From Phycisphaera mikurensis NBRC 102666 (lineage in GTDB: Bacteria > Planctomycetota > Phycisphaerae > Phycisphaerales > Phycisphaeraceae), in the NCBI RefSeq assembly GCF_000284115.1, contig NC_017080.1, positions 3,600,001 to 3,632,000 on the forward strand: 32,000 bases of DNA. Direction: 5' to 3'. The notes under the pieces were generated by a model that was given only the letters and a program-made list of their open reading frames with translations, was not told the DNA's origin and did no database searches. A program made the position numbers and the translations under genes. This document shows, piece after piece, positions 4,903 to 32,000 of the stretch (position 1 is its first letter; every line of letters starts with the position of its first letter).

Positions 4903-7900
4903 TTGCTTGCCCCCTTCCGCAGCCATGCCGCCCCACGCGCAGCCGTGCGGGCGTTTGCGGAGGCGGATCCGGCCGCCGTGGCCGTCGCCGGCCCCACCGG
5001 CGTGACCACGACGCTGCTCGCCGCGGCCGCCGCGCTCGCTCACCCCGGGCCGGTGCTGCTCGTGACGGCTTTCGAGGACCAGGCTCAAGCGGCCACGGCC
5101 GACCTCCTGAACCTCGCCCGCGGGAGCGACGAGTCTGGAATCGGCGGCGCGGGCGACACGCACCTGGTGGTGGCTCCCTTCGACGCGTTGGGCCCACGCG
5201 ACCTGCTGGGCGCCCGGGCCGAGGGCCCGCTGGTTCGGCGGGTGGTGCTCGCCGCGACGCTGGACCACGGGGCCACCGGTCGGCAGGACGCGGAGGGCCT
5301 CGCCGCGAACGCGGGCCGCTGGGTGATCGTCGCCTCCGTCGCCGCGCTGCTGCAGGCGGTGCCGACCGAGGCGGTGGTCGCCGGCGCCGTGCGGCGGATC
5401 CACCCGGGGGATGCCGTGGACCTCCCCGCGCTCGTCGGCCTCTTGGAGGCCACCGGGCACCGGGCCGCGAGAGCCGAAGCGGTCGCCGCCGGGACCTTCC
5501 ACGCCGGGGGGTCCACCCTCCGCTTCCGCCCGCTGGGTGCGATCGCCACCGACGACGCCGGCCGCGCCTCCACCGCGGCGCGGGCGGCGGTCGTGGTCGG
5601 CTTCGAGGAGAACCGCATCGCGTCCATCCGCTTCGCCGACCCGCCGACGGAGGCCTGGAACCGCCCGCTGGCCGCGATCACGCTCGCGACACCGGATGCG
5701 AAGCGCGTGCTGCAGCGGGCATCGACCCGCTGCCTGCTCGACCTGCTGCCGGCCCGCACCGGCGTCGTGCTCGACGACGCCGAGGCGATCGCGCTCGAGG
5801 CCGCCCGGCTGGGCCGCCGCGCCGCGGGCGGCGGTGGCGACCTCACGCCCGCCGAGCTGGACGAGCGGCTCGCCGCCCGCCCGGTCGTCCGGGTCGACCT
5901 GCAGCCCGCGGCGGAGGCCGCCCTCCGCCTCGACGCCGGGCGCCCAAGCCCCTTCCCGCTCCACGCCGACGCGGCGGGCCGGGAGCTCGCGGCGAGGAGC
6001 CGAGACCGCCGCGTGCTCGTCGTGAGCGACCGGCCCGACGACCCGCGGCTGGCCGATCGGCTCTCCGAAGCCCCCGAAGCCCGCTTGATGCGGGGGCTTC
6101 TCTCCGAAGGGTTCCGGCTGCGGGGCGAGGACGGCTTCGAGGCGGTGCCCGGCCACGAGCTGCTCGGCGTGCCCGCACCGCCCGGAGCCGCGGTCGAGGA
6201 CCCCGCCGCCGACGGCGCGCCCGACTCCGGCACCCTCGGCTCCGTCCTCGTCTCGCTGGAACCCGGCGACCCGCTCGTCCACGCCGAGCACGGCGTCGCC
6301 CTGTACGAGGGGATGGAGCCGATCGAGATCGGCATCGGCAGCCGCCGGACGACCATCGACCACCTGACGCTCGCCTTCGCCGAGCCCGACACGCTCCGCG
6401 TGCCCGCCGACCAGGCCGCCCGGGTCTTCCCCTTCCACGCCGCCGACGACGCCCCCACGCCCGACCCGCTCAACAGCCGGGCCTGGGCGAAGAAGCTTTC
6501 TGCCGCCGAAGCCGCCGCCAGCGCCTTCGTGCGGGCGCAGCGCCGGGCCGCCGCCGAGGCCGCCGACCGGCCCGGCCGCGCCCACCCGCCCGAGCCCGAC
6601 CGGCTCCGCGCCTTCGAGGCCGACTTCCCCTTCGAGCCCACGCCCGACCAGGCCGAGGCGTTCGCCGCCGTCGCCGCGGACCTCGAAGCCGAGATCCCGA
6701 TGGACCGGCTGGTCTGCGGCGACGTCGGCTTCGGCAAGACCGAGGTGGCCGCCCGGGCGATCTTCCGCGTCGTCCGCCCGCGGCGGCGGGGCGGCCGCCG
6801 TGGGCACCAGGCCGTCCTGCTCGCGCCGACCACCGTGCTCGCCGAGCAGCACGGCCGGAGCCTCGCCGAACGCCTCGGCCCGCACGGCGTGTCGGTCGGC
6901 GTGCTCTCGCGGCTGCGTCCGGCGGACGAGCAGAAGCAGCTGAAAGCCGGCCTCGCCGGCGGCACGCTCGACCTGCTCATCGGCACGACGGCGCTGCTCG
7001 GCGAGGGGATCGAGCCCGACGACCTCGGCCTCGTGGTCATCGACGAGGAGCACCGCTTCGGCAGCGGCGACAAGGAGGCCCTGCGGCGGCTGCGGGACGG
7101 CGTGGACACGCTCGCCCTCACCGCCACGCCGATCCCGCGCACGCTGCACACCGCGCTCGCCGGGCTCCGCGCTGTCTCCACGCTGCGGACGCCGCCGGCA
7201 GGACGCAGAGCCGTCGTCACCGAGGTGCTGCCCGCCGAGGACGGCCGCCCGCGCGTCCGCACCGCCCTCTCGCGCGAGCTTGCCCGCGGCGGGCAGGCCT
7301 TCGTCGTCCACAACCGCGTGGAGGGCCTCGCCGAGGCGGCCGAGGAGGTGCGGGACCTGCTCGGCGGCGTGACCCGCCCCGACAGGAGCACCCCCGTCGT
7401 CGCCTCCGCCCACGGCCAGCTCCGCGAGGAAGAGCTCGAGGACGCGTTGCTCGCTTTCACCGCCGGCGACACCGACGTGCTCGTCTGCACGACGATCGTC
7501 GAGAACGGCCTCGACGTCGCCCGCGCCGGCACCATCGTCGTCGAGGGCGCCGACCGCTTCGGCCTCGCCTCGCTGCACCAGCTGCGCGGCCGGGTCGGTC
7601 GCTCGGGCCGGCGGGGTTTCTGCCTGCTGGAGGTCCCGAAGAACGCCCGGCTGAGCGAGGGGGCGCAGAAGCGTCTGGCCGCGATGGAAGACGCGGACGG
7701 CCTCGGCGCCGGCTTCGCCATCGCGGAGGCCGACCTGGCCCTCCGCGGCGCCGGAGACCTGCTCGGGGACGAGCAGTCCGGGCACGTCGCCGCCGTCGGC
7801 CACGCCCTCTACAGCCGACTCCTCCAGCGGGCCGCTCGCGAGCAGGCCGGCGACCTCCGCCCCGCCCCGGAGCGCACCGGCCACGCGCTGCCCAACACCG

Positions 7901-10308: not shown

Positions 10309-10384
10309 GGCGTGCGGGGCAGCGCTCCGCTTGACCACAGAGGGAGACCGAGGCACAGAGGCACAGAGAGAGGCACGGAGAACC

Positions 10385-10759
10385 ATGGGAGCTTCGCTCC
10401 TGATCGACATCCAGAATGACTTCCTCCCCGGCGGGAGCCTGGCGGTTCCTGATGGTGACGCGGTGATCCCGGTGGCGAACCGGCTGATGCCGGCGTACCG
10501 GCTCGTCGTCGCGACGGAGGACTGGCACCCGGCGGGGCACGGGAGCTTCGCGAGAAGCCACGCCGGGAAGAGGCCGGGCGAGGTGATCGAGCCGACCGGG
10601 CAGGACCAGGTGCTCTGGCCGGACCCTTGCGTGCAGGGCACGCCGGGGGCGGAGCTTCACGACGACCTCGATCGCGGCGGCGTCGACGAGGGCGACGGGT
10701 GTGACGATCTGCTGAACGGACCGGGTGCCACGCCCCTCGGGGGGTGGCGTTCTCGATGA
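10385..10759 (+). CDS. pncA: Nicotinamidase/pyrazinamidase PncA fragment, 3'-truncated (probable pseudogene)
   Basis: LLIDIQNDFLPGGSLAVPDGDAVIPVANRL...VVATEDWHPAGHGSFA...VLWPDPCVQGTPGAELH matches the N-terminal ~100 aa of the isochorismatase/PncA fold. Similarity ends near 10690 and the ORF stops at 124 aa. The catalytic Lys and Cys regions are absent. WPDHC reads WPDPC. Confidence 0.6.
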   Translation: MGASLLIDIQNDFLPGGSLAVPDGDAVIPVANRLMPAYRLVVATEDWHPAGHGSFARSHAGKRPGEVIEPTGQDQVLWPDPCVQGTPGAELHDDLDRGGVDEGDGCDDLLNGPGATPLGGWRSR

Positions 10760-10803
10760 CCCGCCACCCCGCAAGCGGCGTGGCACCCCGAGAGAAGCCA
10801 ACC

Positions 10804-11787
10804 ATGAACGTGACACCAACGAAGGAACAGATCCGCGGGTGCCTGCTCGGGCACGCGGTCGGCGACGCGCTGGGGGTGCCGGTGGAGTTCGCCGGGCGCG
10901 ACGCCCGCGACCGCGACCCGGTCACCGGCATGCGTGCGTACGGCACGCACCACCAGCCGGCGGGGACGTGGTCGGACGATCACTCGCTGACGCTCGCGAG
11001 CGCGGTGGCGCTGACGGAGCGCGGGTGGGACCTGCACGCGATGGCGGACGAGTTCACCGGCTGGCTGTTCCGCGGGAAGCACCTGCCCCGCGGGAGCGTC
11101 TTCGACGTGGGCGGGGCGACGCGGGAGGCGATCTCGAAGCTCGACCGCGGCGTGAAGCCCGAGGAGGCCGGCGGAACCCGCGAGAGCAGCAACGGGAACG
11201 GGAGCCTGATGCGGATGGCGCCGGCGGCCCTCTTCTGCGCCGGCGACACGCCGGAGGGGCGGCGGCTGCGCATCACGAACGCGAGCCGGCTGACGCACGG
11301 GCACCCACGGACGCTCGCGGTCTGCGCCCTGTACGCGGAGATCGTCGCGACGCTGGTGGCGGGTTCCGACCTGCCGAGCTCGCTCGACGCCGCACGCTCG
11401 CGGCTGGCGCCGGTCTTCTACAGCCGGTACGCCGAGGAAGAACCGCACCTCCACAAGCTGATGACCGCCGACTTCGCGACGCTTCCGCGGAGCGAGATCA
11501 GCGGCAGCGGCTACGTCGTTCACACGCTGGAGGCGGCGCTTTGGTGCTGCCTGAACTTTCCCGACGACTACGCCACGCCGGTGCTCGCGGCGGTGAACCT
11601 GGGGCTCGACACCGACACGACCGGAGCGGTGACGGGGTCGCTGGCGGGGCTGATCCACGGCGAAACTCGGCTTCCCGCCGGGTCTCGCGGGGACGCGGGC
11701 ATCCCGGAGGTGTGGCTGGCGGCGCTCACGCGGCGGGAGCACCTGGAGGAGGTCTGCCACGGGCTCGCGGGGGCGGTGTCCGCGTAG
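10804..11787 (+). CDS. ADP-ribosylglycohydrolase family protein
   Basis: IRGCLLGHAVGDALGVPVEF, GTWSDDHSLT, SNGNGSLMRMAP and LGLDTDTTGAVTGSLAG motifs. ATG 10804 is preferred over the upstream ATG 10744. Confidence 0.8.
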   Translation: MNVTPTKEQIRGCLLGHAVGDALGVPVEFAGRDARDRDPVTGMRAYGTHHQPAGTWSDDHSLTLASAVALTERGWDLHAMADEFTGWLFRGKHLPRGSVFDVGGATREAISKLDRGVKPEEAGGTRESSNGNGSLMRMAPAALFCAGDTPEGRRLRITNASRLTHGHPRTLAVCALYAEIVATLVAGSDLPSSLDAARSRLAPVFYSRYAEEEPHLHKLMTADFATLPRSEISGSGYVVHTLEAALWCCLNFPDDYATPVLAAVNLGLDTDTTGAVTGSLAGLIHGETRLPAGSRGDAGIPEVWLAALTRREHLEEVCHGLAGAVSA

Positions 11788-11890: not shown

Positions 11891-12050
11891 TTAGCGCACC
11901 GCGCGCAATTTTCCGATCGCCTCTGCGGGCGAGTCGTGCCCCTCGCTTCGGCGGCTGCATCGCCCTGCAGGGGCAGGGCTGCTTCGCCTCCTCACGAGGA
12001 ACACGACGCGCGGACGCAGGCCGATCGGAAAATTGCGCACGATGCTCTAG
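11891..12050 (-). mobile_element. 160-bp MITE-like long-palindrome repeat, copy 1 (inverted relative to copies 2 and 3)
   Basis: About 96% identical, by manual alignment, to the reverse complement of 25061-25220 and 28875-29034. Terminal inverted repeats contain GCGCAATTTTCCGATCG. Bounded by TTAG and CTAG. Lies between convergent genes. Confidence 0.8.
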
Positions 12051-16439: not shown

Positions 16440-18200
16440 TTAGAAGTTCCCGCTGGTCCGCACGGCGCCCGCGTCGGCTCCGGTCACCCGCAGCGGCTTC
16501 TCCAGCTTCCGCACCGAGTCCTCCAGCCCGCCGGGCCGCGACCGGATCGCCCACAGCGCCCGGTGCTCGGCCGCGAGCCCCTCGAGCTCGGCCCGCATCG
16601 CCGGGCCCGCGCCGGCGTCGCCGCCGCGCAGCCGCTCGCCGGCACGCCGGCAGGACCACCGCGCCAGCGCCGCCGAGAAGGCGGCCTCGCGGACCAGCAG
16701 CGCCGCCTCCTCCGTCCGCGTCTCGACGGATCCGAGCCGGCCGAGCACCGCGTCCAGCGCCGCCTCGCCCGCGTCGGTGTCCGCCGTCGACAGCCGCGCG
16801 AGCGGCTCCTCCGCGATCGGCAGCTCCGGCGCGTGCAGGAAGCGGAACCACCACGTCGCGTTGTGCCAGCGTGCGTCGCTGCTCTCGTAGGCGTTGGCGA
16901 GGTCCCAGAGGATGGCGCCAAGCCCGGGATCTTCCTCGTCGGCGGCCACGCGGGAGATCGCGCGGGGCAGGGCGTCGGTGTCGCCGTTGGTCCGGAGGCA
17001 CCACGCGACGCCGGAGCCGAAGACCAGCCCGACCCACGACACCGCCTGCGTCTGCCAGTGGCCGTGGTCGCCCCACTCGGTGTTGAGGTAGCCCTCGGCG
17101 CCGAAGCGGATGCCGGCCTCGGCGGCGTCCCGCTGGTTGTCGGTGGCGTTGCGGCCGCGGCCGGTGAGCGAGCACCACGACGACGTGCCGGGGCAGACGT
17201 AGAAGCGGACACCCGCTTGCTGGAACCGCTCGCTCTCGGGGGCGAAGCTCTTGATCGACTCGTAGTTCCAGTTCACCAGCACGCCCTCGGGCGGCAGCTC
17301 TGCGATCAGCTCGGGGTGGTTGAGCACGATGTCGCCGAAGTAGATCGGCGTCTTGCCCCGCTCGCTCACGCGGGCGCAGAGCCGCTTGAGGTACCCGAGG
17401 TAGACGTGAGCCTTGCCTTCTCTCTCGCAGGCTTCCTTGCTCTTGCCCTGGCCGAGGTCGAAGGTTTCGTCGCAGCCGATGTTGAAGAGCGTGGCGTCGG
17501 ACGCGGCGCACAGCTGGTCGATGAGGTCGGCCGACAGCTCGAAGGCCTCCGGCAGGACCGGCGCCAGCGAGCAGGTGCCCGGCCGCCAGCCCCAGGGGCT
17601 CTCGAAGCCCTCGTCCACCTCCGCGAGGTGGTGGTACGCCGGCAGGTCGAGCCAGCGCTCCATGTGGCCGAACAGGTTCTGGCAGGGGACCAGCTCGATG
17701 AAGTGCTCGCGGCAGAGGCGCTGGATCTCGCCGAGCTCCTCGAAGGTGAAAGGCGAGGCGTCCTTCCACGCGGGCTCGTGGCCGGCGTAGCGGATCGTGT
17801 GCTCGGTGTAGAGCTCCAGGTGGTTCACGCGGAGCCGGCCGAGGCGTGGGATCAGCGTGTCGCGGAGGAACGCCATCGACGGCACCCGGTCGCGGCTGCA
17901 GTCGAGCATGTAGCCGCGGACGGCGAGGTCGGGGTGGTCCACGATCTCGCCGCAGGGCAGGCGCTGCGGCGCGCCCAGCCGCAGCTGCCGCAGCGCCTCG
18001 CGGCCGTAGAAGAGGCCCGCTTCGTCGTGCGCGACCAGATCGACGCCGTCGCCGCGGACCGTGAGCCGGAAGCTCTCTTTTCGCCCGCGGTCCGCGGGGT
18101 CGACCCGCTCGCTCACCGGGGCGTCGGCGGCGGCGGTGCCCTCGGCGGCGGTGACCGATTGCGGCGCGGGAAAGAGGAACAGGTCGGGGAGGTTCAGCAT
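16440..18200 (-). CDS. Glycoside hydrolase family 20-like (beta-N-acetylhexosaminidase-like) protein
   Basis: IVDHPDLAVRGYMLDCSRDRVPS...LRVNHLELYTEH, FNIGCDETFDLGQG and NTEWGDHGHWQ. No obvious signal peptide. Confidence 0.65.
   Translation of the reverse strand: MLNLPDLFLFPAPQSVTAAEGTAAADAPVSERVDPADRGRKESFRLTVRGDGVDLVAHDEAGLFYGREALRQLRLGAPQRLPCGEIVDHPDLAVRGYMLDCSRDRVPSMAFLRDTLIPRLGRLRVNHLELYTEHTIRYAGHEPAWKDASPFTFEELGEIQRLCREHFIELVPCQNLFGHMERWLDLPAYHHLAEVDEGFESPWGWRPGTCSLAPVLPEAFELSADLIDQLCAASDATLFNIGCDETFDLGQGKSKEACEREGKAHVYLGYLKRLCARVSERGKTPIYFGDIVLNHPELIAELPPEGVLVNWNYESIKSFAPESERFQQAGVRFYVCPGTSSWCSLTGRGRNATDNQRDAAEAGIRFGAEGYLNTEWGDHGHWQTQAVSWVGLVFGSGVAWCLRTNGDTDALPRAISRVAADEEDPGLGAILWDLANAYESSDARWHNATWWFRFLHAPELPIAEEPLARLSTADTDAGEAALDAVLGRLGSVETRTEEAALLVREAAFSAALARWSCRRAGERLRGGDAGAGPAMRAELEGLAAEHRALWAIRSRPGGLEDSVRKLEKPLRVTGADAGAVRTSGNF
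18052..18097. repeat. 46-bp symmetric element CCGCGGACCG-N26-CGGTCCGCGG
   Basis: Perfect arms, inside the GH20-like ORF. Confidence 0.85.
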
Positions 18201-20141: not shown

Positions 20142-20459
20142 TCAGGAGCCGCGGTAGCTCGAGAAGCCGAAGGGCGACACCAGCAGCGGGACGTGGTGGT
20201 GGGACGCGGGGTCGGTGACCTCGAACCGCACCTCCACGGAGGGGTAGAAGCACGGCCGCCCGGAGAGCGCGAAGTACGCGGCGGTCTCGAAGCGGAGCAC
20301 GAAGACGCCGGCACCGACCGCGGGAAGCTCGCCGTAGCGGCCGTCGGCGTTGGTGGTTCCCTCGGCGAGCACGGCGCCGTCGGCGTCGCGGAGCCGCAGC
20401 GACATCCCGGCGGCGGGCACGCCGAGGGCGGTGTCGAGCACGTGGGTGGAGAGGCTCAC
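20142..20459 (-). CDS. uraH: 5-hydroxyisourate hydrolase (transthyretin-like)
   Basis: LSTHVLDTALGVPAAG N-terminus and diagnostic C-terminal YRGS. The GTG start overlaps the upstream gene's stop (GTGA). Confidence 0.88.
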   Translation of the reverse strand: MSLSTHVLDTALGVPAAGMSLRLRDADGAVLAEGTTNADGRYGELPAVGAGVFVLRFETAAYFALSGRPCFYPSVEVRFEVTDPASHHHVPLLVSPFGFSSYRGS

Positions 20460-21343
20460 GTGGTGGGCGACTCCGCCGGGAGGACCCCGTTCGCGCGGAA
20501 GAACGCTTCGGCGTCGCGGAAGAATTGCGAGGGCATCGGATTCAGGTGGCTCAGCCGGTAGGTGTGGAAGGTGGCGTCGGGCCGGGCCGCCGCGTTGGCC
20601 TCGCCCATCGCGTAGGGCAGCACCTCGTCGATCTCGGAGTGCACGATCAGGACCGGCCCTTCGTAGAGGGCCAGCGCGGCGGTGACGTCCCAATCGTCGC
20701 GGATCAGGAAGCCGGGCACCCACAGGCTCCACGCGATCCGCGAGATGGAGGTGTAGGTGCTCTCGAGGATCAGCGCCGCCGCGGCCGGCCGCTGCGCGGC
20801 GACGGTCGCGACGATGCCGCCGCCCATGCTCCGGCCGTGGAGCACGATCCCGGCCGGGTCGACCCGCGGGTCGGCCGCGAGCCGGTCGAAGAAGGCGAGG
20901 TGGTCCGCGGTGATGCCCCTCTTGGTCGCTCTCCCGGTCGAGTGTCCGCAGCCGCGGTACTCCACGAGCAGCACCGAGACGCCCAGCGCGCGGTACATCG
21001 GGAACGCCTCCTCGTAATCCTCGATGAACTCCGCGTTGCCGTGGGCAAAGAGCACCACGGGCCCGGGCGCGGCCTCGCTCACGCCCTCGCCGGGATAGAA
21101 GTGCGCCGCGGTGCGGCCCTCCCCGTGCTCCGCCCACCAACGCTCGGCCCCGGGCGGCAGGTCCAGCTCCGCCCTTGGCTTCATGTGCTGCGCGGGGTAG
21201 AGCAGCGAACGCTCCAGCAGCATGATCAGCCCGCCGGAGAGCAGGAACAGGACGCCCACGAGCGGGCCGAGGCGCCGCAGCGAGCGGGCGAAGCCGCGGC
21301 GACGCGGGCGGGATTGCGGGTCGGGGTCGGAAGCGGCCTGCAT
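20456..21343 (-). CDS. Membrane-anchored alpha/beta-fold hydrolase, unknown substrate
   Basis: N-terminal TM helix LGPLVGVLFLLSGGLIMLL. Nucleophile elbow GRSMGG. HGNAEF oxyanion region. Translationally coupled to uraH. Confidence 0.7.
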   Translation of the reverse strand: MQAASDPDPQSRPRRRGFARSLRRLGPLVGVLFLLSGGLIMLLERSLLYPAQHMKPRAELDLPPGAERWWAEHGEGRTAAHFYPGEGVSEAAPGPVVLFAHGNAEFIEDYEEAFPMYRALGVSVLLVEYRGCGHSTGRATKRGITADHLAFFDRLAADPRVDPAGIVLHGRSMGGGIVATVAAQRPAAAALILESTYTSISRIAWSLWVPGFLIRDDWDVTAALALYEGPVLIVHSEIDEVLPYAMGEANAAARPDATFHTYRLSHLNPMPSQFFRDAEAFFRANGVLPAESPTT

Positions 21344-21462
21344 CGGCCGAGGCTACGGGGAAGCGGGAGAGAGCGAGAGAAAGAAAGATTGACAGAGAGG
21401 CACAGTTCCAGGCGGCCTTGCCGCGGCCGCCGGAGGCGGCACTTGCTGACTTCCTCTCTTCC

Positions 21463-22008
21463 TCACTCTCTCACTTCTGCGCTTGCTCCTTCCCCGTGCT
21501 CCGCCGTCAACAGCTTCGCGATCCGCAGCGCCGTGATCTTCCGCTGCTCCGCCGCGGCGACGGCGGCTTCCTTCTCCGGGGCGTTCCGCTGGCGGCGGAC
21601 GCAGGCGACGAGCATCTCGTCGGCGGTCCTGCCGGTGGCGCAGACGATGAAGGGCCAGCCGAACCTCGCCTCGTAGTTGGCGTTCTCCTCGGCCATGGCG
21701 GCTCTGGCCTCGGCGTCGGCGTCGCTCATGCCGGCCTGCTCACCCGCGGACCACTCTCGGTTGCCCGCGGACCGTGAGCGCTCGGAGCCGGGACGCTCGC
21801 CGATCCGCGGGTGGGCTTCGAAGGCTTCGAGCCAGTGGCCTTCCCCCATCGCCTCGAAGATCATCCCCGCCGCCTCGTGCAGTTCCGCGAGCGAGCGGAA
21901 GGGCCGCGAGGCGGCCATCTGCTGCGCCCACCAGCGCGTGCCGCAGCAGGCCAGGAAGGCGGCGGTGGCGTCGGTTTCGCGCAGGGCGTTCAGGTCGTTG
22001 AGCGTCAT
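21463..22008 (-). CDS. uraD: OHCU decarboxylase (2-oxo-4-hydroxy-4-carboxy-5-ureidoimidazoline decarboxylase)
   Basis: FEAHPRIGE motif and WPFIVCATGRTADEM. The ATG overlaps the allB stop (ATGA). Confidence 0.85.
   Translation of the reverse strand: MTLNDLNALRETDATAAFLACCGTRWWAQQMAASRPFRSLAELHEAAGMIFEAMGEGHWLEAFEAHPRIGERPGSERSRSAGNREWSAGEQAGMSDADAEARAAMAEENANYEARFGWPFIVCATGRTADEMLVACVRRQRNAPEKEAAVAAAEQRKITALRIAKLLTAEHGEGASAEVRE
21765..21810. repeat. 46-bp symmetric element, right arm 9/10 (CGATCCGCGG)
   Basis: Inside uraD. The variant arm encodes the conserved PRI of the HPRIGE motif. Confidence 0.7.
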
Positions 22009-25060: not shown

Positions 25061-25220
25061 CTAGAGCATCGTGCGCAATTTTCCGATCGGCCTGCGTCCG
25101 CGCGTCGTGTTCCTCGTGAGGAGGCGAAGCAGCCCTGCCCCTGCAGGGCGATGCAGCCGACGAAGCGAGGGGCACGACTCGCCCGCAGAGGCGATCGGAA
25201 GCTAGCGCACGGTGCGCTAG
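25061..25220 (+). mobile_element. 160-bp MITE-like long-palindrome repeat, copy 2
   Basis: CTAG at both ends. Right TIR partly degenerate (GGAAGCTAGCGCAC versus GGAAAATTGCGCGC). The IS element abuts its right CTAG. Confidence 0.8.
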
Positions 25221-26651
25221 CAGGCCGCTGCAGAACCCTGTCCATCGCGCTAACTTCTGAGGCTTCTTCCTCAGGAGCCTTCTCATGCGTGGCCGCGTCG
25301 CTTCCTCGTCCCCGATGTTCTTCGCGATCGACCTCGAAGAACGCATCCGCCCCGACCACCCGCTGCGGCCGATTCGCCGGATCGTCGACCGCATCCTCGG
25401 CGACATGACCGCCGACTTCGACGCGGCCTACGCCGACGTGGGCCGCCCAGGTGTCCCGCCTGAGCGGCTGCTCAAGCTCATGCTCTTGCAGGCGCTCTAC
25501 GGCGTCTCCAGCGAAGCCAAGCTCTTCGACCGCCTCGACACCGACCTGGTGTTCCGGTGGTTCTGCGGCATGGACCCCGCCGAGCCGGTCCCCGCCGCCA
25601 CCGCCTTCACCCACAACCGCGACCGGCTGATCAAGCACAAGCTCGCCGAGAAGTTCTTCACCGCCGTCACCAAGCTGGCCATCGACACGGGCAAGGTCTC
25701 CACCGAGCACTTCAGCGTCGACGGCACGCTCATCGAGAGCCACGGCTCCATCAAGAGCTTCGTGCCCAACGCCACCGCCGATGCCGCTCAAGCCCGCAAG
25801 CAGCACTGCGGCGGCGACGATCAGGACCACGACAAGGGTCCCGGCGGCACCGGTGGCTTCAAGAGCCGCAACCCCGAGCAAGACTTCCACGGCCAGAAGC
25901 GCAGCAACGCCACGCACCGCAGCGTGACCGATCCGGAGGCCAAGCTCTACCGCAAGGGCGACGGCCAGCCCGCCAAGCTCTCGCACATGGGCCACCTGCT
26001 GGTGGACAACCGCAGCGGCATCATCGTGGGGATGAAGCTCTCCGAGGCCAACGGCTTCGCCGAGCGGGAGACGGCCCTGGAACTGGTCGACACGCTCAAG
26101 ACGACCCACGGGATCAGCGCCCGCACGGTCGGAGCCGACGCCGGCTACGACGCCGGCGCGTTTCTTCGCGAGCTCGAAGACCGGGGGGCGACCCCGCACG
26201 TTGCCCCCAGCCGCGAGCGTCGGCCCGGCGGGCGGAGGGGGCCGAAGAAGGCGGACCGGCCGAAACTGGCGGCCAGGCTCCGCAACTTCCGGCGGAAGCT
26301 GCGGGACCGCGGCTACGCGATCAGCCAGCGGAAACGCAAGAAAGTGGAGGAGCCGTTTGGCTGGTTGAAGAGCCACGCACTCTTGAGCAAGGCGCGTCTG
26401 GTGGGTCGAGAGCGGATCCAACAGCAGTGGCACATCGCCGCGGCGGGGCTGACGCTGGTGAGGCTGAGGAACCTGATGGCGGCGTAGAGGCCGATGGCTG
26501 GATCGGTGGGTGATCCCACCGTGCTGCCGCCGTTCGAGCGGCTGAAAATCCCCCGACGATGCGGCGGATCACCCGCCGCTGGCCGACGAATTCGCAGACA
26601 ACCCCCGTGCCTCAAGCCAACGATCCGGCAGTGGGTTTCTGCAGCGGCCTG
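25221..26651 (+). mobile_element. IS5/IS1182-like insertion sequence (1431 bp) with 4-bp CTAG target duplication
   Basis: IRL CAGGCCGCTGCAGAACCC (25221-) versus IRR reverse complement CAGGCCGCTGCAGAAACCC (-26651). Flanking CTAG at 25217-25220 and 26652-26655. Single intact transposase ORF. Confidence 0.85.
25285..26487 (+). CDS. DDE transposase, IS5/IS1182-like (InsH-type N-terminal domain)
   Basis: IRPDHPLRPIRRIVD...PPERLLKLMLLQALYGVSSEAKL, HFSVDGTLIES, VGADAGYDAG and KVEEPFGWLK. An alternative start exists at Met11 (25315). Confidence 0.85.
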   Translation: MRGRVASSSPMFFAIDLEERIRPDHPLRPIRRIVDRILGDMTADFDAAYADVGRPGVPPERLLKLMLLQALYGVSSEAKLFDRLDTDLVFRWFCGMDPAEPVPAATAFTHNRDRLIKHKLAEKFFTAVTKLAIDTGKVSTEHFSVDGTLIESHGSIKSFVPNATADAAQARKQHCGGDDQDHDKGPGGTGGFKSRNPEQDFHGQKRSNATHRSVTDPEAKLYRKGDGQPAKLSHMGHLLVDNRSGIIVGMKLSEANGFAERETALELVDTLKTTHGISARTVGADAGYDAGAFLRELEDRGATPHVAPSRERRPGGRRGPKKADRPKLAARLRNFRRKLRDRGYAISQRKRKKVEEPFGWLKSHALLSKARLVGRERIQQQWHIAAAGLTLVRLRNLMAA

Positions 26652-28874: not shown

Positions 28875-29034
28875 CTGGAGCATCGTGCGCAATCTCCCGA
28901 TCGGCCTGCGTCCGCGCGTCGTGTTCCTCGTGAGGAGGCGAAGCAGCCCTGCCCCTGCAGGGCGATGCAGCCGACGTAGCGAGGGGCACGACTCGCCCGC
29001 AGAGGCGATCGGAAAATTGCGCGCGGTGCGCTAG
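28875..29034 (+). mobile_element. 160-bp MITE-like long-palindrome repeat, copy 3
   Basis: Bounded by CTGG and CTAG. The right CTAG contains the TAG stop codon (29031-29033, minus strand) of the upstream M20 gene. Sits inside a co-directional gene string. Confidence 0.8.
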
Positions 29035-30299
29035 CGCCGCGGATCGTCCGGAGCCGCCAAGCGCTTCATCAGCCGCACCAGGAGCTCCACGGCGACGGCG
29101 ACGTCGGCCACGTCGGCGGCTTCGTCCAGGTGGTGGGAGATCCCGCCGGGGTGGCGGAGGAACAGCAGCGCCGCCGGGAACTCAGCCGCCATCACCACGG
29201 CGTCGTGGCCGGCGCCCGAGACCATCGCCGGACCGGCCTGGCCGAGCTCCGCCAGCAACGCCCCGCAGCGGGCGCCGAGCTTCGCGTCCATCTTCACGGC
29301 CGGCTGGTTCTGGTTCTCCTCCACGGTCAGCTCGCAGCCTTCGGCGGCGGCGAGGTCGATCGCCTGCTCCAGCAGCCGGCCGACGGCGGCGACACGCACC
29401 GCGTCCTCGGCGTGGCGGACGTCCATGGAGAGGTCGACGCGGCCGGGCACGACGTTCCGCGTGTTTGGGAGCACGTCCAGCCGCCCCACCGTGGCCTTCA
29501 GTCCGGGCGTGGCGAGGCCCTCGGCACGCACCGCCGCCACCACGCCGGCCGCGGCGAGCAGGGCGTCCTGGCGTTGGTCCATCGGCCGCGTCCCGGCGTG
29601 GGCGGTTCGCCCGGTCAGCCGCACGAGCAGCCGGCTCTGCCCGGCGACCGCGGACACCACGCCCACCGACCGCCCCGCCGCCTCCAGGAGCGGGCCCTGC
29701 TCCAGGTGCGTCTCGACGAAGCCGAGCACGTCTTCGGGCCGGTACGCCGCTTCGGGCAGCAACCGCGGGTTCTGGCCGAAGGCGCGGATCGCGTCTTCCA
29801 TCAGGACGCCCGATCTGTCCGGGCGCGTCAGCAGCTCGTAGTCGAAGGTCCCCGCGACCGCCCGGCTGCCCAGGTACGGCGTCGCGTAACGCACGCCTTC
29901 CTCCTCGCTGAAGGCGACGACGTCGACGTGGAAGGGCAGCGGCTCGCGGCGGCCGAAGGCCTCCACCGCCGCGAGCGCCGCCAGCACGCCGAGGACGCCG
30001 TCGTAGCGGCCGGCGCCGGGCACGGAGTCGATGTGGGAGCCCAGCAGCAGGACCCTCGGCCGGCTCCCATCGAGCGGAGCCGCGGACCGCCGCCCGATCA
30101 GGTTCCCCGCCGCGTCGGTCCGCGGCGCCAGCCCCGCCGACCGCATCCACCCCGCGAGCTTCCCGTGCGCCTCCTTCATCGCCGGGGTCAGGTACCGGCG
30201 GGTGATGCGGTCCTCCTCCTCCGAGCAGGCCGCGATCGCGTCGCAGCGGAGCATGGCCGTCTCGGCGGCGGCGAGAGACTCTGGAGACGGAGCGTGCAC
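29031..30299 (-). CDS. Second M20-family amidohydrolase paralog (ureidoglycolate amidohydrolase or allantoate amidohydrolase candidate)
   Basis: GSHIDSVPGAGRYDGVLGVLAALAA, AFSEEEGVRY, AHAGTRPMDQRQDA and SGAGHDA. Start uncertain: GTG 30299 is preferred and ATG 30254 is possible. TTG 30395 is rejected because it lies in the repeat array. Confidence 0.75.
   Translation of the reverse strand: MHAPSPESLAAAETAMLRCDAIAACSEEEDRITRRYLTPAMKEAHGKLAGWMRSAGLAPRTDAAGNLIGRRSAAPLDGSRPRVLLLGSHIDSVPGAGRYDGVLGVLAALAAVEAFGRREPLPFHVDVVAFSEEEGVRYATPYLGSRAVAGTFDYELLTRPDRSGVLMEDAIRAFGQNPRLLPEAAYRPEDVLGFVETHLEQGPLLEAAGRSVGVVSAVAGQSRLLVRLTGRTAHAGTRPMDQRQDALLAAAGVVAAVRAEGLATPGLKATVGRLDVLPNTRNVVPGRVDLSMDVRHAEDAVRVAAVGRLLEQAIDLAAAEGCELTVEENQNQPAVKMDAKLGARCGALLAELGQAGPAMVSGAGHDAVVMAAEFPAALLFLRHPGGISHHLDEAADVADVAVAVELLVRLMKRLAAPDDPRR
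30080..30125. repeat. 46-bp symmetric element CCGCGGACCG-N26-CGGTCCGCGG
   Basis: Perfect arms, inside the second M20 amidohydrolase ORF. Confidence 0.85.
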
Positions 30300-30388
30300 G
30301 GCGGAGAAGCTACGGGACACGCTGCGGCCCGCGCCGCCCCCGCCGCCGTTCAAACGTCCAAGGCAACCAAGCGGTCGAAGGATCCAGC

Positions 30389-30645
30389 CAGTCAAGGGGC
30401 CAGGCCCCGGCAGTCAAGGGGTCAGGCAGTCAAGAAGAGTCAAGGGGTCGGGCAGTCAAGGGGTCAGGCCCCTGGCAGTCATGGCAGTCAAGGCAGTCAA
30501 GGGGTCAGGCAGTCAAGGGGCAGTCAAGGGGTCAGGCCCCTTGACAAGGCCCCTCAACAGGCAGCTTTCGCGCTTTTGAGGGGCCAATCTTTCGAGGGGC
30601 CAGGCCCCTTGAAAGGAGGTCCCTCGAACGAGGTACAAGGGGAGT
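30389..30645 (+). repeat. Degenerate tandem array of GTCAAGGGG-type repeats plus GGGGYCAGGCCCC palindromes
   Basis: Direct copies start at 30391, 30413, 30429, 30439, 30455, 30478 (variant), 30487, 30496, 30512 and 30523. Inverted or variant copies lie at 30537-30545, 30550-30558, 30576-30583, 30592-30612 and 30633-30642. GGGGYCAGGCCCC occurs at 30396, 30460, 30528 and 30595. Confidence 0.85.
30523..30545. promoter_or_regulatory. Perfect 9-bp inverted repeat GTCAAGGGG-TCAGG-CCCCTTGAC closing the repeat array (operator-like)
   Basis: Read directly. It lies in the divergent region between the M20 gene (minus strand) and xdhA (plus strand), so it is not positioned as a terminator. Confidence 0.4.
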
Positions 30646-30770
30646 CGCGGCCGCGCACCGGTCCTCCGCACGGGGAGGGTGCGGGCGACGGGGCGGACGC
30701 GCTACGCTGCCCGGTCCCGCGAGGCCGTCGATGCCTGCCGACGCCCGCCGAGCCCGTTTGCCCGACGAAC

Positions 30771-32000
30771 ATGCGTGACCACGCGGTCCTCTATCTCAAT
30801 GGCCGGCGCCGCGAGGTGCGCGGGGCCGACCTGCTGCTGCCGCTGTCGACGTGGCTGCGCGAGAACCAGCGGCTGACCGGCACCAAGATCGTCTGCGCCG
30901 AGGGCGACTGCGGGGCCTGCTCTCTGCTGGTCGGCCGCCGCGAGGATCCCGCCGACGACGCCCTCACCTACCGCGCGATCGACGCGTGCATCGCCTTCGT
31001 CTACCAGGCGGACCGGGCGCACGTGGTGACCGTCGAGGGGCTGCGGGAGGAGGACGGCTCGCTGTCGAGCGTCCAGCAGGCGATGGTTGCCTGCCACGGC
31101 AGCCAGTGCGGCTTCTGCACGCCGGGCTTCGTCACCACGATCCACGCGGTCCACGAAGAGCCGAAGCAGGTGGGCGTGACGGTGAACGGCCAGGAGCCCG
31201 ACGAGGAGGAGATCGACTGGCCGCACGCGCTCTCCGGCAACCTGTGCCGCTGCACGGGCTACGTGCAGATCTTCGACGCGGCCAGGGCGGTGGACCCCGC
31301 GTCGCTCACCCGGCTCAACGATCGCTACCCGGCGGCCGCGATGCTCGACGACTTCGACGCCGCCGCCGAGGCCCCGCTCGATGCGAGCTTCGAGCGCGGA
31401 GGCCGGCCCTGCCGCGTCGCCGCCCCCCGCACGCTCGCGGCCGCCGCGGCCTTCCGCGCCGAGCACCCCGCCTGCCGGGTCGCTTCGGGCACGACCGACC
31501 TGGGCGTGCAGCACCGCCACGGCCGCTACGAGCCGGAGGTCGTGCTCGGGCTGCACGCGGTGGACGGACTCGGCGGCATCGACCGGGTGAGCGATGACGA
31601 CGCCGGGGGTGAATCCAAGCGCGAGCACCTGCTCATCGGCGCGGCCGCCACGTGGACACGCATCGCTCGCGAGGTCCAGCGCGACCTGCCGGCGTACCAC
31701 GCCGTCCTGATGCGCTTCGGCAGCCCGCAGATCCGCAACGCCGGCACGCTCGCCGGCAACCTCGCCAACGGCAGCCCCATCGCCGACAGCGTCCCGCTGC
31801 AGCTCGTGCTCGAGGCCGAGCTGGAGCTGATCTCGGGCGCCGGCGTCCGCCGCCGCGTCCCGCTCACCCGCTTCTACACCGGGTACAAGCAGATGGACCT
31901 CCGCGACGACGAGCTGATCGCCGCCGTCCGCCTGCCGCTGCCCATGCCGAGCCAGCGCCTCTCGCTGCACAAGGTCAGCAAGCGGCGCGACATGGACATC
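30771..32000 (+). CDS. xdhA: Xanthine dehydrogenase small subunit (2Fe-2S + FAD-binding), 3' end outside window
   Basis: Not in the ORF track because there is no stop in the window. Manual translation from ATG 30771 gives MRDHAVLYLNGRRREV...CAEGDCGACSLLV...CHGSQCGFCTPGF, then the FAD domain SGTTDLGVQ...NAGTLAGNLANGSPIADS, all in one frame to the window end. Confidence 0.85.
   Translation, partial: MRDHAVLYLNGRRREVRGADLLLPLSTWLRENQRLTGTKIVCAEGDCGACSLLVGRREDPADDALTYRAIDACIAFVYQADRAHVVTVEGLREEDGSLSSVQQAMVACHGSQCGFCTPGFVTTIHAVHEEPKQVGVTVNGQEPDEEEIDWPHALSGNLCRCTGYVQIFDAARAVDPASLTRLNDRYPAAAMLDDFDAAAEAPLDASFERGGRPCRVAAPRTLAAAAAFRAEHPACRVASGTTDLGVQHRHGRYEPEVVLGLHAVDGLGGIDRVSDDDAGGESKREHLLIGAAATWTRIAREVQRDLPAYHAVLMRFGSPQIRNAGTLAGNLANGSPIADSVPLQLVLEAELELISGAGVRRRVPLTRFYTGYKQMDLRDDELIAAVRLPLPMPSQRLSLHKVSKRRDMDI

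Follow-up and report, generated by a model that had tools for sequence, protein, structure and literature searches.

A repeat array between the divergent xdhA and M20 amidohydrolase genes of Phycisphaera mikurensis is probably a lineage-specific extragenic minisatellite

What is a dense array of short direct and inverted repeats doing between two divergent genes of purine catabolism? The array lies at about 30389-30645 of a 32,000-nucleotide (nt) stretch of Phycisphaera mikurensis NBRC 102666 (contig NC_017080.1, positions 3,600,001 to 3,632,000), which is referred to here as the window. It occupies the spacer between xdhA, for a xanthine dehydrogenase subunit, and a gene for an M20-family amidohydrolase. 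A sequence-only reading had offered four interpretations: a multi-site operator for a purine- or urate-responsive regulator, a stack of promoter -35 boxes, a G-run-rich structure, and a hypervariable minisatellite. Our analysis indicates that the tract is probably a lineage-specific extragenic minisatellite, one that resembles a cluster of repetitive extragenic palindromic sequences (REP) or of their hairpin-forming doublets (REPIN), grew in place, and has no sequence-specific regulatory job.

The array was first described by its direct repeats. A scan for CAGTCAAGG with at most one mismatch generated 10 copies, 7 exact and 3 with one mismatch, all on the + strand and all within 30389-30529 (141 bp). 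Their start-to-start distances are 22, 16, 10, 16, 23, 9, 9, 16 and 11 nt, which agrees with the earlier description of ten direct copies at irregular 9-23-bp intervals in about 140 bp. Exact GTCAAGG occurs 10 times in the window, 9/10 within 30391-30545, and shuffled sequences contain 3.0 ± 1.9 copies. The degenerate pattern TYRAGGGGYC gave 11 matches in the window, all in 30392-30612, with 0.87 expected. Tandem Repeats Finder reported periods of 9 (6.2 copies), 11 (2.2 copies) and 16 nt (6.8 copies). Three 9-nt units stand head to tail, near-perfect, at 30474-30500, and there are 11-nt and 16-nt units besides. The 26-nt sequence GGCAGTCAAGGGGTCAGGCAGTCAAG has two exact copies, and an exact pair of this kind is the mark of a recent segmental duplication. 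GGCAGTCAAGG is perfect in 6/9 copies, and the identity spans whole units and their junctions, beyond the core motif. The G+C content of the array is 0.61-0.64 compared with 0.72-0.82 in the adjoining stretches, and the + strand is purine-rich with repeated AAGGGG.

The palindromes reveal a longer period. GGGGYCAGGCCCC occurs exactly four times in the window (0.01 expected), starting at 30396, 30460, 30528 and 30596, so the four palindromes noted previously are present. Successive starts are separated by 64, 68 and 68 nt, which makes a higher-order repeat, fourfold and with a period of about 66 nt, that the sequence-only reading overlooked. The stretch 30387-30654 therefore comprises roughly four units of about 66 nt in tandem. 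When the tract was cut at the palindrome intervals, the 4 pieces aligned with each other. Every unit opens with NNCAGTCRAGGGGYCAGGCCCC and carries a second element, YNAAGGGG/TTGAGGGG, about 40-45 nt further downstream. In the left-hand two units the space between the palindromes is made up of truncated unit heads of 23, 16, 11 and 9 nt. The 64-68-nt palindrome period, the fourfold unit of about 66 nt and the inflation of its first two copies by sub-repeats are new here. The features of the array are as follows.

30389..30529, + strand: ten direct CAGTCAAGG copies (motif scan; Tandem Repeats Finder periods 9, 11 and 16)
30387..30654, + strand: four tandem units of 64-68 nt at 30387-30450, 30451-30518, 30519-30586 and 30587-30654 (palindrome positions, unit alignment)
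30396..30408, no strand: palindrome GGGGCCAGGCCCC, copy 1 of 4, the others at 30460-30472, 30528-30540 and 30596-30608 (exact scan)
30409..30434, + strand: 26-nt GGCAGTCAAGGGGTCAGGCAGTCAAG with an exact repeat at 30492-30517 (repeat-family detection)
30523..30545, no strand: perfect hairpin or palindrome GTCAAGGGG-TCAGG-CCCCTTGAC (inverted-repeat search)
30548..30585, no strand: hairpin GGCCCCTCAACAG-N12-CTTTTGAGGGGCC, 13-nt arms, 92% complementary (inverted-repeat search; present in centroid folds)
30589..30615, no strand: palindrome CTTTCGAGGGGCC-A-GGCCCCTTGAAAG, 13-nt arms, 92% complementary (inverted-repeat search)

The perfect inverted repeat GTCAAGGGG-N5-CCCCTTGAC was thus located where it had been reported, and the diverged or inverted copies CCCCTCAAC, TTGAGGGGCC and TCGAGGGGCCAGGCCCCTTGA are also present. 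TCAAGGGGTCAGGCCCCTTGA lies at 30524-30544 with 0 mismatches and TCGAGGGGCCAGGCCCCTTGA at 30592-30612 with 1 mismatch, along with two half-decayed copies. Both agree with the description of the unit of REP, REPIN and bacterial interspersed mosaic elements (BIME) as a hairpin-capable imperfect palindrome of 20-60 nt. The left units are homogeneous and the right units more diverged, a decay graded from one end that fits polar minisatellite growth. Identity over whole units and junctions, together with this graded decay, is the pattern of tandem duplication and slippage, unlike that of independently maintained binding sites.

From this anatomy we infer the following history. A unit of about 66 nt with a REP-like palindrome, TCAAGGGGYCAGGCCCCTTGA, would have been duplicated in tandem to about four copies. 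Short microhomologies (GGCAG, TCAAGG and TCAGG) may then have allowed unequal exchange or slipped-strand mispairing in the two left copies. Such events would yield truncated sub-units of 9, 11, 16 and 23 nt and thereby the ten irregularly spaced direct CAGTCAAGG copies.

Is the array shared with relatives? Five related lineages were found by a protein search with the M20 enzyme (77-85% amino-acid identity) and their loci were fetched. The divergent xdhA/M20 arrangement is kept in all five, with spacers of 43 to about 285 nt, and the window's array is absent from 5/5 of these orthologous spacers. The lineages are listed below with the identity of xdhA at the nucleotide level over its first 500 nt, unless stated otherwise.

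L007: 92% xdhA identity, spacer about 150 nt, no array
L008: 83% xdhA identity, spacer about 100 nt, no array
L006: 82.5% xdhA identity, spacer 43 nt, no array
L009: contig covers only 59 nt of xdhA (M20 gene 77% identical over its first 500 nt), spacer about 230 nt, no array but collinear single-copy pieces
L010: 78% xdhA identity, spacer about 285 nt, a different array

In L007, the closest of these sequences, the match to the window runs as far as GGCGGAGAAGCTAC and resumes at GGTCCCGCG; between these points it has 32 nt in place of the window's 399 nt. In L009, single-copy counterparts of window sequences were found in the same order: ATCCAGTCAA, CAGGCCCC.GGC, AGG.G.TCCCT and GCACCGGTCC.CCGCA. 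This alignment scored 30, compared with 16 ± 4.3 for shuffles, and 1/500 shuffles reached that score. The 16-mer adjoining the array is matched by 1/500 shuffles on its own. These collinear single-copy pieces are a moderate indication that the array arose from sequence which the spacer already contained, without a foreign insertion. The comparison defines four further features.

30314..30712, no strand: lineage-specific segment of 399 nt that holds the array (32 nt in its place in L007)
30655..30670, + strand: GCACCGGTCCTCCGCA, unique flank of the array, 15/16 common to L009 at a collinear position (alignment)
30713..30770, + strand: xdhA-proximal conserved block GGTCCCGCG..CCGTCG..CCTGCCGACGCCCGCC..ATG, kept in L007, L008 and L009
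30255..30313, - strand: M20-proximal block, a close match in L007 up to GGCGGAGAAGCTAC, partly alignable in L009, L006 and L010

The layout of the xdhA-proximal block is GGTCCCGCG(G)-N4-CGTCG-N3-5-CCTGCCGACGCCCGCC, followed by about 20 nt to the ATG. Judged by its conservation, the block at 30713-30770 is likely the true xdhA control region and a better candidate than the array.

Another sequence, CACCGGTCC, was considered as the core of a shared element and dropped, as it occurs singly at about the chance rate. It is found beside the window array (30655-30670) and collinear in the L009 spacer (170-178). It is also found in the central loops of two different L006 repeats (5810-5818 and 11408-11416), which share the 12-mer GAACACCGGTCC. 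With counts at the chance level, this co-occurrence may be coincidence.

The genes on either side are those named previously. The minus strand carries the M20 amidohydrolase gene, and the plus strand carries xdhA, which encodes 2Fe-2S and FAD domains.

29031..30254, - strand: M20 allantoate-amidohydrolase-like gene, 407 amino acids, ATG at 30254 (Pfam, database gene call)
30771..32000, + strand: xdhA, 2Fe-2S and FAD-binding xanthine dehydrogenase subunit, running off the window (domain scan)

The named homologues of the M20 peptidase-family protein are annotated as allantoate amidohydrolase, and those with a source name are from Planctomycetota. The two genes belong to a purine-catabolism cluster at about 18-32 kb that includes adenine deaminase, an alpha/beta hydrolase, an amidohydrolase, uricase, two M20 enzymes, a cupin and xdhA. 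A 454-amino-acid open reading frame (ORF) starting at TTG extends the M20 gene into the array. In the database record for the locus (NCBI GCA_014207395.1, JACHEL010000015) the gene starts at ATG 30254 and encodes 407 amino acids; the TTG-initiated ORF is therefore spurious, as had been suspected, and the spacer is 30255-30770 (516 nt). The array region is non-coding, again in agreement with the sequence-only reading. The array lies about 135 nt from the M20 start and 125-380 nt from the xdhA start.

Could the array be a species-specific cis-regulatory element, in which a transcription factor or nucleoid protein, bound cooperatively to the CAGTCAAGG or palindromic sites, controls the two purine operons together? 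Its position between two divergent catabolic operons invites this explanation, and so do the many copies of one motif and the perfect palindromes of operator-like size. The array is, however, absent in the five lineages that keep the divergent pair. The search for motif clusters upstream of other purine genes, which had been proposed as a check, was run on the window and found none: the other purine-gene spacers there (adenine deaminase, uricase, the second M20 gene and others) are without the motif. A Pfam scan of window ORFs identified no regulator gene in the purine cluster. Irregular spacing of 9-23 nt gives no helical phasing, and identity that runs through the linkers indicates recent duplication, not conservation of sites. 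A sigma-54 promoter, which would require upstream activator sites, was not matched in a scan of the array. Sequence conservation lies elsewhere, in the roughly 60 nt next to each start codon. The proposal of a multi-site purine or urate operator is unsupported, and we regard a cis-regulatory array as unlikely.

The stack of -35 boxes facing the M20 gene, with a terminal TTGACA facing xdhA, did not hold up. No TTGAC box has a -10 partner, and a consensus scan found 0 promoter-like sites on both strands of 30150-30850. The hexamers 16-18 nt from TTGACA (30541-30546) are, by eye, AGCTTT, GCTTTC and CTTTCG. The G-run structure fared no better: using a criterion of four runs of at least 3 G with loops of up to 7 (or 12) nt, no canonical G-quadruplex motif was identified within 30389-30645, even with loops up to 12 nt. 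One canonical motif, GGGGAGGGTGCGGGCGACGGGG, is located at 30672-30693 (+), outside the array and within the 399-nt lineage-specific segment.

A further explanation is that the array is transcribed as a long 5' leader or small RNA, with hairpins or Shine-Dalgarno-like AAGGGG repeats acting post-transcriptionally. The purine-rich + strand with its AAGGGG repeats would suit such a role. Folding is also predicted to be strong on both strands, with z-scores of -5.9 and -4.7, but direct plus inverted copies give such scores automatically. Rfam 15 gave no gathering-score match in the window, and the spacer produced only noise at E 0.7-9, thus no family match even at E<=10. A tRNA scan of the array was negative. 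No promoter or terminator signals were found, there are no homologues from which covariation could be read, and GGA motifs of the CsrA type are nearly absent. We consider a structured RNA very improbable.

The minisatellite interpretation fared differently, and its parts have to be separated. The spacer is real sequence and no assembly artefact: an independent NCBI draft assembly (L003) and a Logan read assembly (L004) both reproduce 30254-30773 of the window without a single base difference. In a fourth data set the two genes are likewise separated by 516 nt. Growth by slippage would account for the exact duplicates and the graded decay of the internal structure, and head-to-tail tandem repeats are present as expected of loci with simple sequence repeats (SSR) or variable numbers of tandem repeats (VNTR), both in the Tandem Repeats Finder output and in the fourfold 64-68-nt unit. 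The hypervariability is another matter. The proposed comparison of copy number yielded identical arrays in the window, L003 and L004, the same spacing in the fourth data set, and relatives without the array; it showed no length variation among assemblies of the locus that are probably all from one strain. Variable copy number is plausible.

Mycobacterial interspersed repetitive units (MIRU) are intergenic minisatellites, or VNTR, with dozens of loci and copy-number polymorphism. The array is similar to them in its tandem units of tens of nt, its intergenic position in a high-GC genome and its variable number of partial units. Unlike MIRU, it is known from one locus only and is identical in length in all assemblies. 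The TA repeats of hifA/hifB in Haemophilus influenzae are dinucleotides between the -35 and -10 boxes and are demonstrably variable (PMC2651432). They too form a repeat tract in the spacer of two divergent genes that could in principle affect both, whereas the array lies outside the conserved promoter-proximal blocks, has units of 9-66 nt and displays no variation among the available assemblies.

These parallels bear on the idea of a contingency locus, in which the two operons would be switched or tuned as units are gained or lost and the spacing or topology of their promoters changes, in the way known for SSR in divergent promoters of pathogens. Near-perfect head-to-tail units of 9, 11 and 16 nt with signs of recent duplication, and the location in a divergent spacer, are in keeping with it. 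So is L011, a second sample's scaffold with an L010-type locus, where a run of N interrupts the assembly of this spacer just where that lineage has its own repeats. Against it, three assemblies are identical base for base and the fourth has the same spacer length. Because the array is not part of the conserved promoter-proximal blocks, the -35/-10 spacing would stay the same if its length changed, and long and few units imply low slippage rates. A contingency locus therefore seems to us quite improbable.

The closest analogue of the array is the REP/REPIN (BIME-like) cluster of Pseudomonas and enterobacteria (PMC3116915, PMC3733652). REPIN/REP units are known to have been amplified in tandem along with their flanks, both in Pseudomonas (PMC3116915) and in other bacteria (PMC3733652). 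The array shares with such clusters an extragenic location, a short imperfect palindrome as core, a unit amplified with its flanks, few copies over a few hundred bp and a species-specific cluster. It differs in showing no sign of a dispersed high-copy family in about 40 kb, and in units that are broken up by 9-16-nt sub-repeats, with one palindrome arm reiterated ten times. In REPs the palindrome also bears a tetranucleotide tag, GTAG or CGTC, at one end (PMC3733652), while the array units start CAGTCAAGG or GGCAGTCAAGG and carry neither tag. Since no copies were found outside the spacer in about 40 kb, the tag is lacking and no REP-associated tyrosine transposase (RAYT) was detected among the window ORFs, the array was not filed as a member of a REP family.

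Dispersal was examined by sequence searches. Across about 40 kb of this genome, made up of the 32-kb window and a further 8 kb from L003, the motif and the palindrome were found in this spacer only. The 19-mer GGCAGTCAAGGGGTCAGGC was scanned against one genome per species (185,579 species), a collection that presumably includes the remainder of the source genome with the window masked; this generated only two single, non-repetitive chance matches, one in a Methylophaga metagenome-assembled genome (MAG) and one in an Acidobacteriota MAG. A plasmid collection gave no match to the array, and viral contigs gave no match to the palindrome. Arrays mis-called as genes were sought by six-frame translation; the 5.8 billion predicted proteins searched include no relative.

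A metagenome scan with GGCAGTCAAGG-N0-16-GGCAGTCAAGG identified at least 120 loci. In 108 of these the spacing is a multiple of 3 and the repeats code for collagen-like GSQ repeats. The remaining 12 are unrelated non-coding arrays, and none has GTCAAGGGGYCAGG. Non-coding tandem (G)GGCAGTCAAGG(GG) arrays were seen upstream of same-strand genes in L129 (9625-9840) and also in L130, L021/L113, L084, L082 and L030, a number of matches compatible with chance in a collection of that size. The L129 array stands in a divergent spacer with inverted pyrimidine-rich copies opposite, and its variant GGCAACCAAG is common to the left flank of the window array. It was tried as a relative and rejected as coincidence: it lies between a gene for an FAH-family hydrolase and an ORF without a Pfam match, with no purine link and no Rfam family. 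By eye, that ORF resembles a solute-binding protein.

These searches weigh on a rival explanation, that the array belongs to a dispersed mobile family, REP/REPIN-like or resembling miniature inverted-repeat transposable elements (MITE), whose transposase is encoded elsewhere; the locus would then be one tandem BIME-like cluster. Palindromes of 21-23 nt with short loops, and a tandem unit with flanks that matches the REPIN clusters of PMC3116915, speak for it. Genuine GTAG-tagged REP dimers occur in the related genome L006, and the window holds a two-copy MITE-like element adjoining an IS5-type transposase. Yet the relative has its REP at three sites in 21 kb, and about 40 kb of the window's genome contain no copy outside the spacer. 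The representative genomes gave only the two chance matches to the 19-mer, and neither tag is present. A Pfam search that covered the window ORFs detected no Y1-transposase or RAYT domain; a RAYT gene, normally present once per genome, might be located far from the window. The L009 comparison, finally, suggests an origin in place. A dispersed mobile family is thus an unlikely source of the array.

Other repeats were noted in this clade. The REP dimers of L006, GTAGCCCGGCAACNNRGTTGCCGGG, are GTAG-tagged, head to head and about 60 nt apart, and are located at 5760-6001 and 16551-16661 (L005 5605-5846 and 16551-16661). Two stand in tandem between xdhC and xdhB, and one follows the HIU-hydrolase gene. 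No GTAG-tagged REPs of this type are present in the window. L006 also has a 160-nt palindrome between two M20 genes (11310-11470), the arms of which reiterate CAGGTCTCAGGTCTCAGG and its complement CCTGAGACCTGAGACCTG. The window itself contains a long imperfect palindrome at 21355-21480, one arm of which is rich in purines (GGGGAAGCGGGAGAGAGCGAGAGAAAGAAAG) and the other in pyrimidines (CTTCCTCTCTTCCTCACTCTCTCACTTCTGCGCTTGCTCCTTCCCC); it lies upstream of the gene for the alpha/beta hydrolase (20456-21343, - strand). In L010, a lineage 77-78% identical to the window, the xdhA/M20 spacer (1905-2090) carries AGAGGCACAGAA twice in direct orientation, the core CTGTGCCTCT three times inverted, and then CCGCAACT five times directly before the xdhA start; this array is independent of the one in the window. 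The repeats in L010, in L006 and at 21355-21480 of the window therefore indicate that growth of extragenic hairpin repeats is common in this clade.

The MITE-like element is about 158 nt long and is present at 11892-12049 and 25061-25220 in opposite orientation, with terminal inverted repeats of 28-29 nt, TAGCGCACCGCGCGCAATTTTCCGATCG. The copy at 25061-25220 abuts the IS5-type transposase gene (25285-26487; DUF772 and DDE_Tnp_1), and the draft assembly breaks into contigs at this insertion sequence (IS). A look-up of the transposase retrieved short collapsed contigs only. The two-copy element looks like a MITE or a solo IS end. At 10340-10384, the sequence immediately before the ATG of an isochorismatase/nicotinamidase-like gene is GAGGCACAGAGGCACAGAGAGAGGCACGGAGAACC. 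GAGGCACAG occurs three times in the window compared with 0.32 expected, and the 11-mer AGAGGCACAGA, which overlaps the 10340-10384 tract, is the arm motif of the L010 array. A strong hairpin with 27-nt arms (GGGTGCCACGCCCCTCGGGGGGTGGCG / CGCCACCCCGCAAGCGGCGTGGCACCC) is found at 10723-10788, at the end of the isochorismatase-like ORF. This ORF matches only the first half of the Pfam model and may be truncated.

Independent arrays thus occupy the same xdhA/M20 spacer in the window and in L010. It is conceivable, though doubtful, that Phycisphaerae have their own self-amplifying extragenic elements, built from purine-rich direct motifs of 8-11 nt closed by inverted copies, that recurrently colonise the xdhA/allantoate-amidohydrolase spacer. 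These would be kept because a long, cruciform-prone and length-variable spacer uncouples or tunes both purine promoters.

Several points weigh against a lineage-specific minisatellite grown in place. The homology with L009 is only moderately significant, and L009 is more distant than three relatives that are free of the segment, so that several deletions or a transfer are needed. Independent arrays in 2/6 lineages could hint at selection for a long structured spacer. Non-conservation is compatible with a young, species-specific function. A dispersed family of diverged copies may exist elsewhere in the genome, the degenerate-pattern scans having covered about 40 kb. The fold z-scores of -4.7 to -5.9 represent strong structure potential, even if the repeats produce them automatically.

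We nevertheless favor the lineage-specific minisatellite as the most probable explanation. The array would occupy the dispensable middle of the divergent spacer, while expression of xdhA and the M20 gene would need the roughly 60 conserved nt beside each start codon. Since the array is not conserved, it is probably neutral or only structural. At most it may have a physical role as a hairpin- or cruciform-prone spacer between two divergent promoters, maybe one of unstable length. Such a spacer might absorb negative supercoils of divergent transcription or act as a length-variable spacer.

If this explanation is true, the tract is ordinary repeat DNA, and annotating it as a purine operator, promoter or ORF would be wrong. 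The real control sequences, and the ones to study, would be the conserved blocks of about 60 nt beside each start codon. The array could be used as a marker for strain typing if it varies. Gene regulation in Planctomycetota is still poorly understood, and the finding would matter more if recurrent, unrelated arrays in this spacer reflect selection for a structured spacer between divergent promoters.

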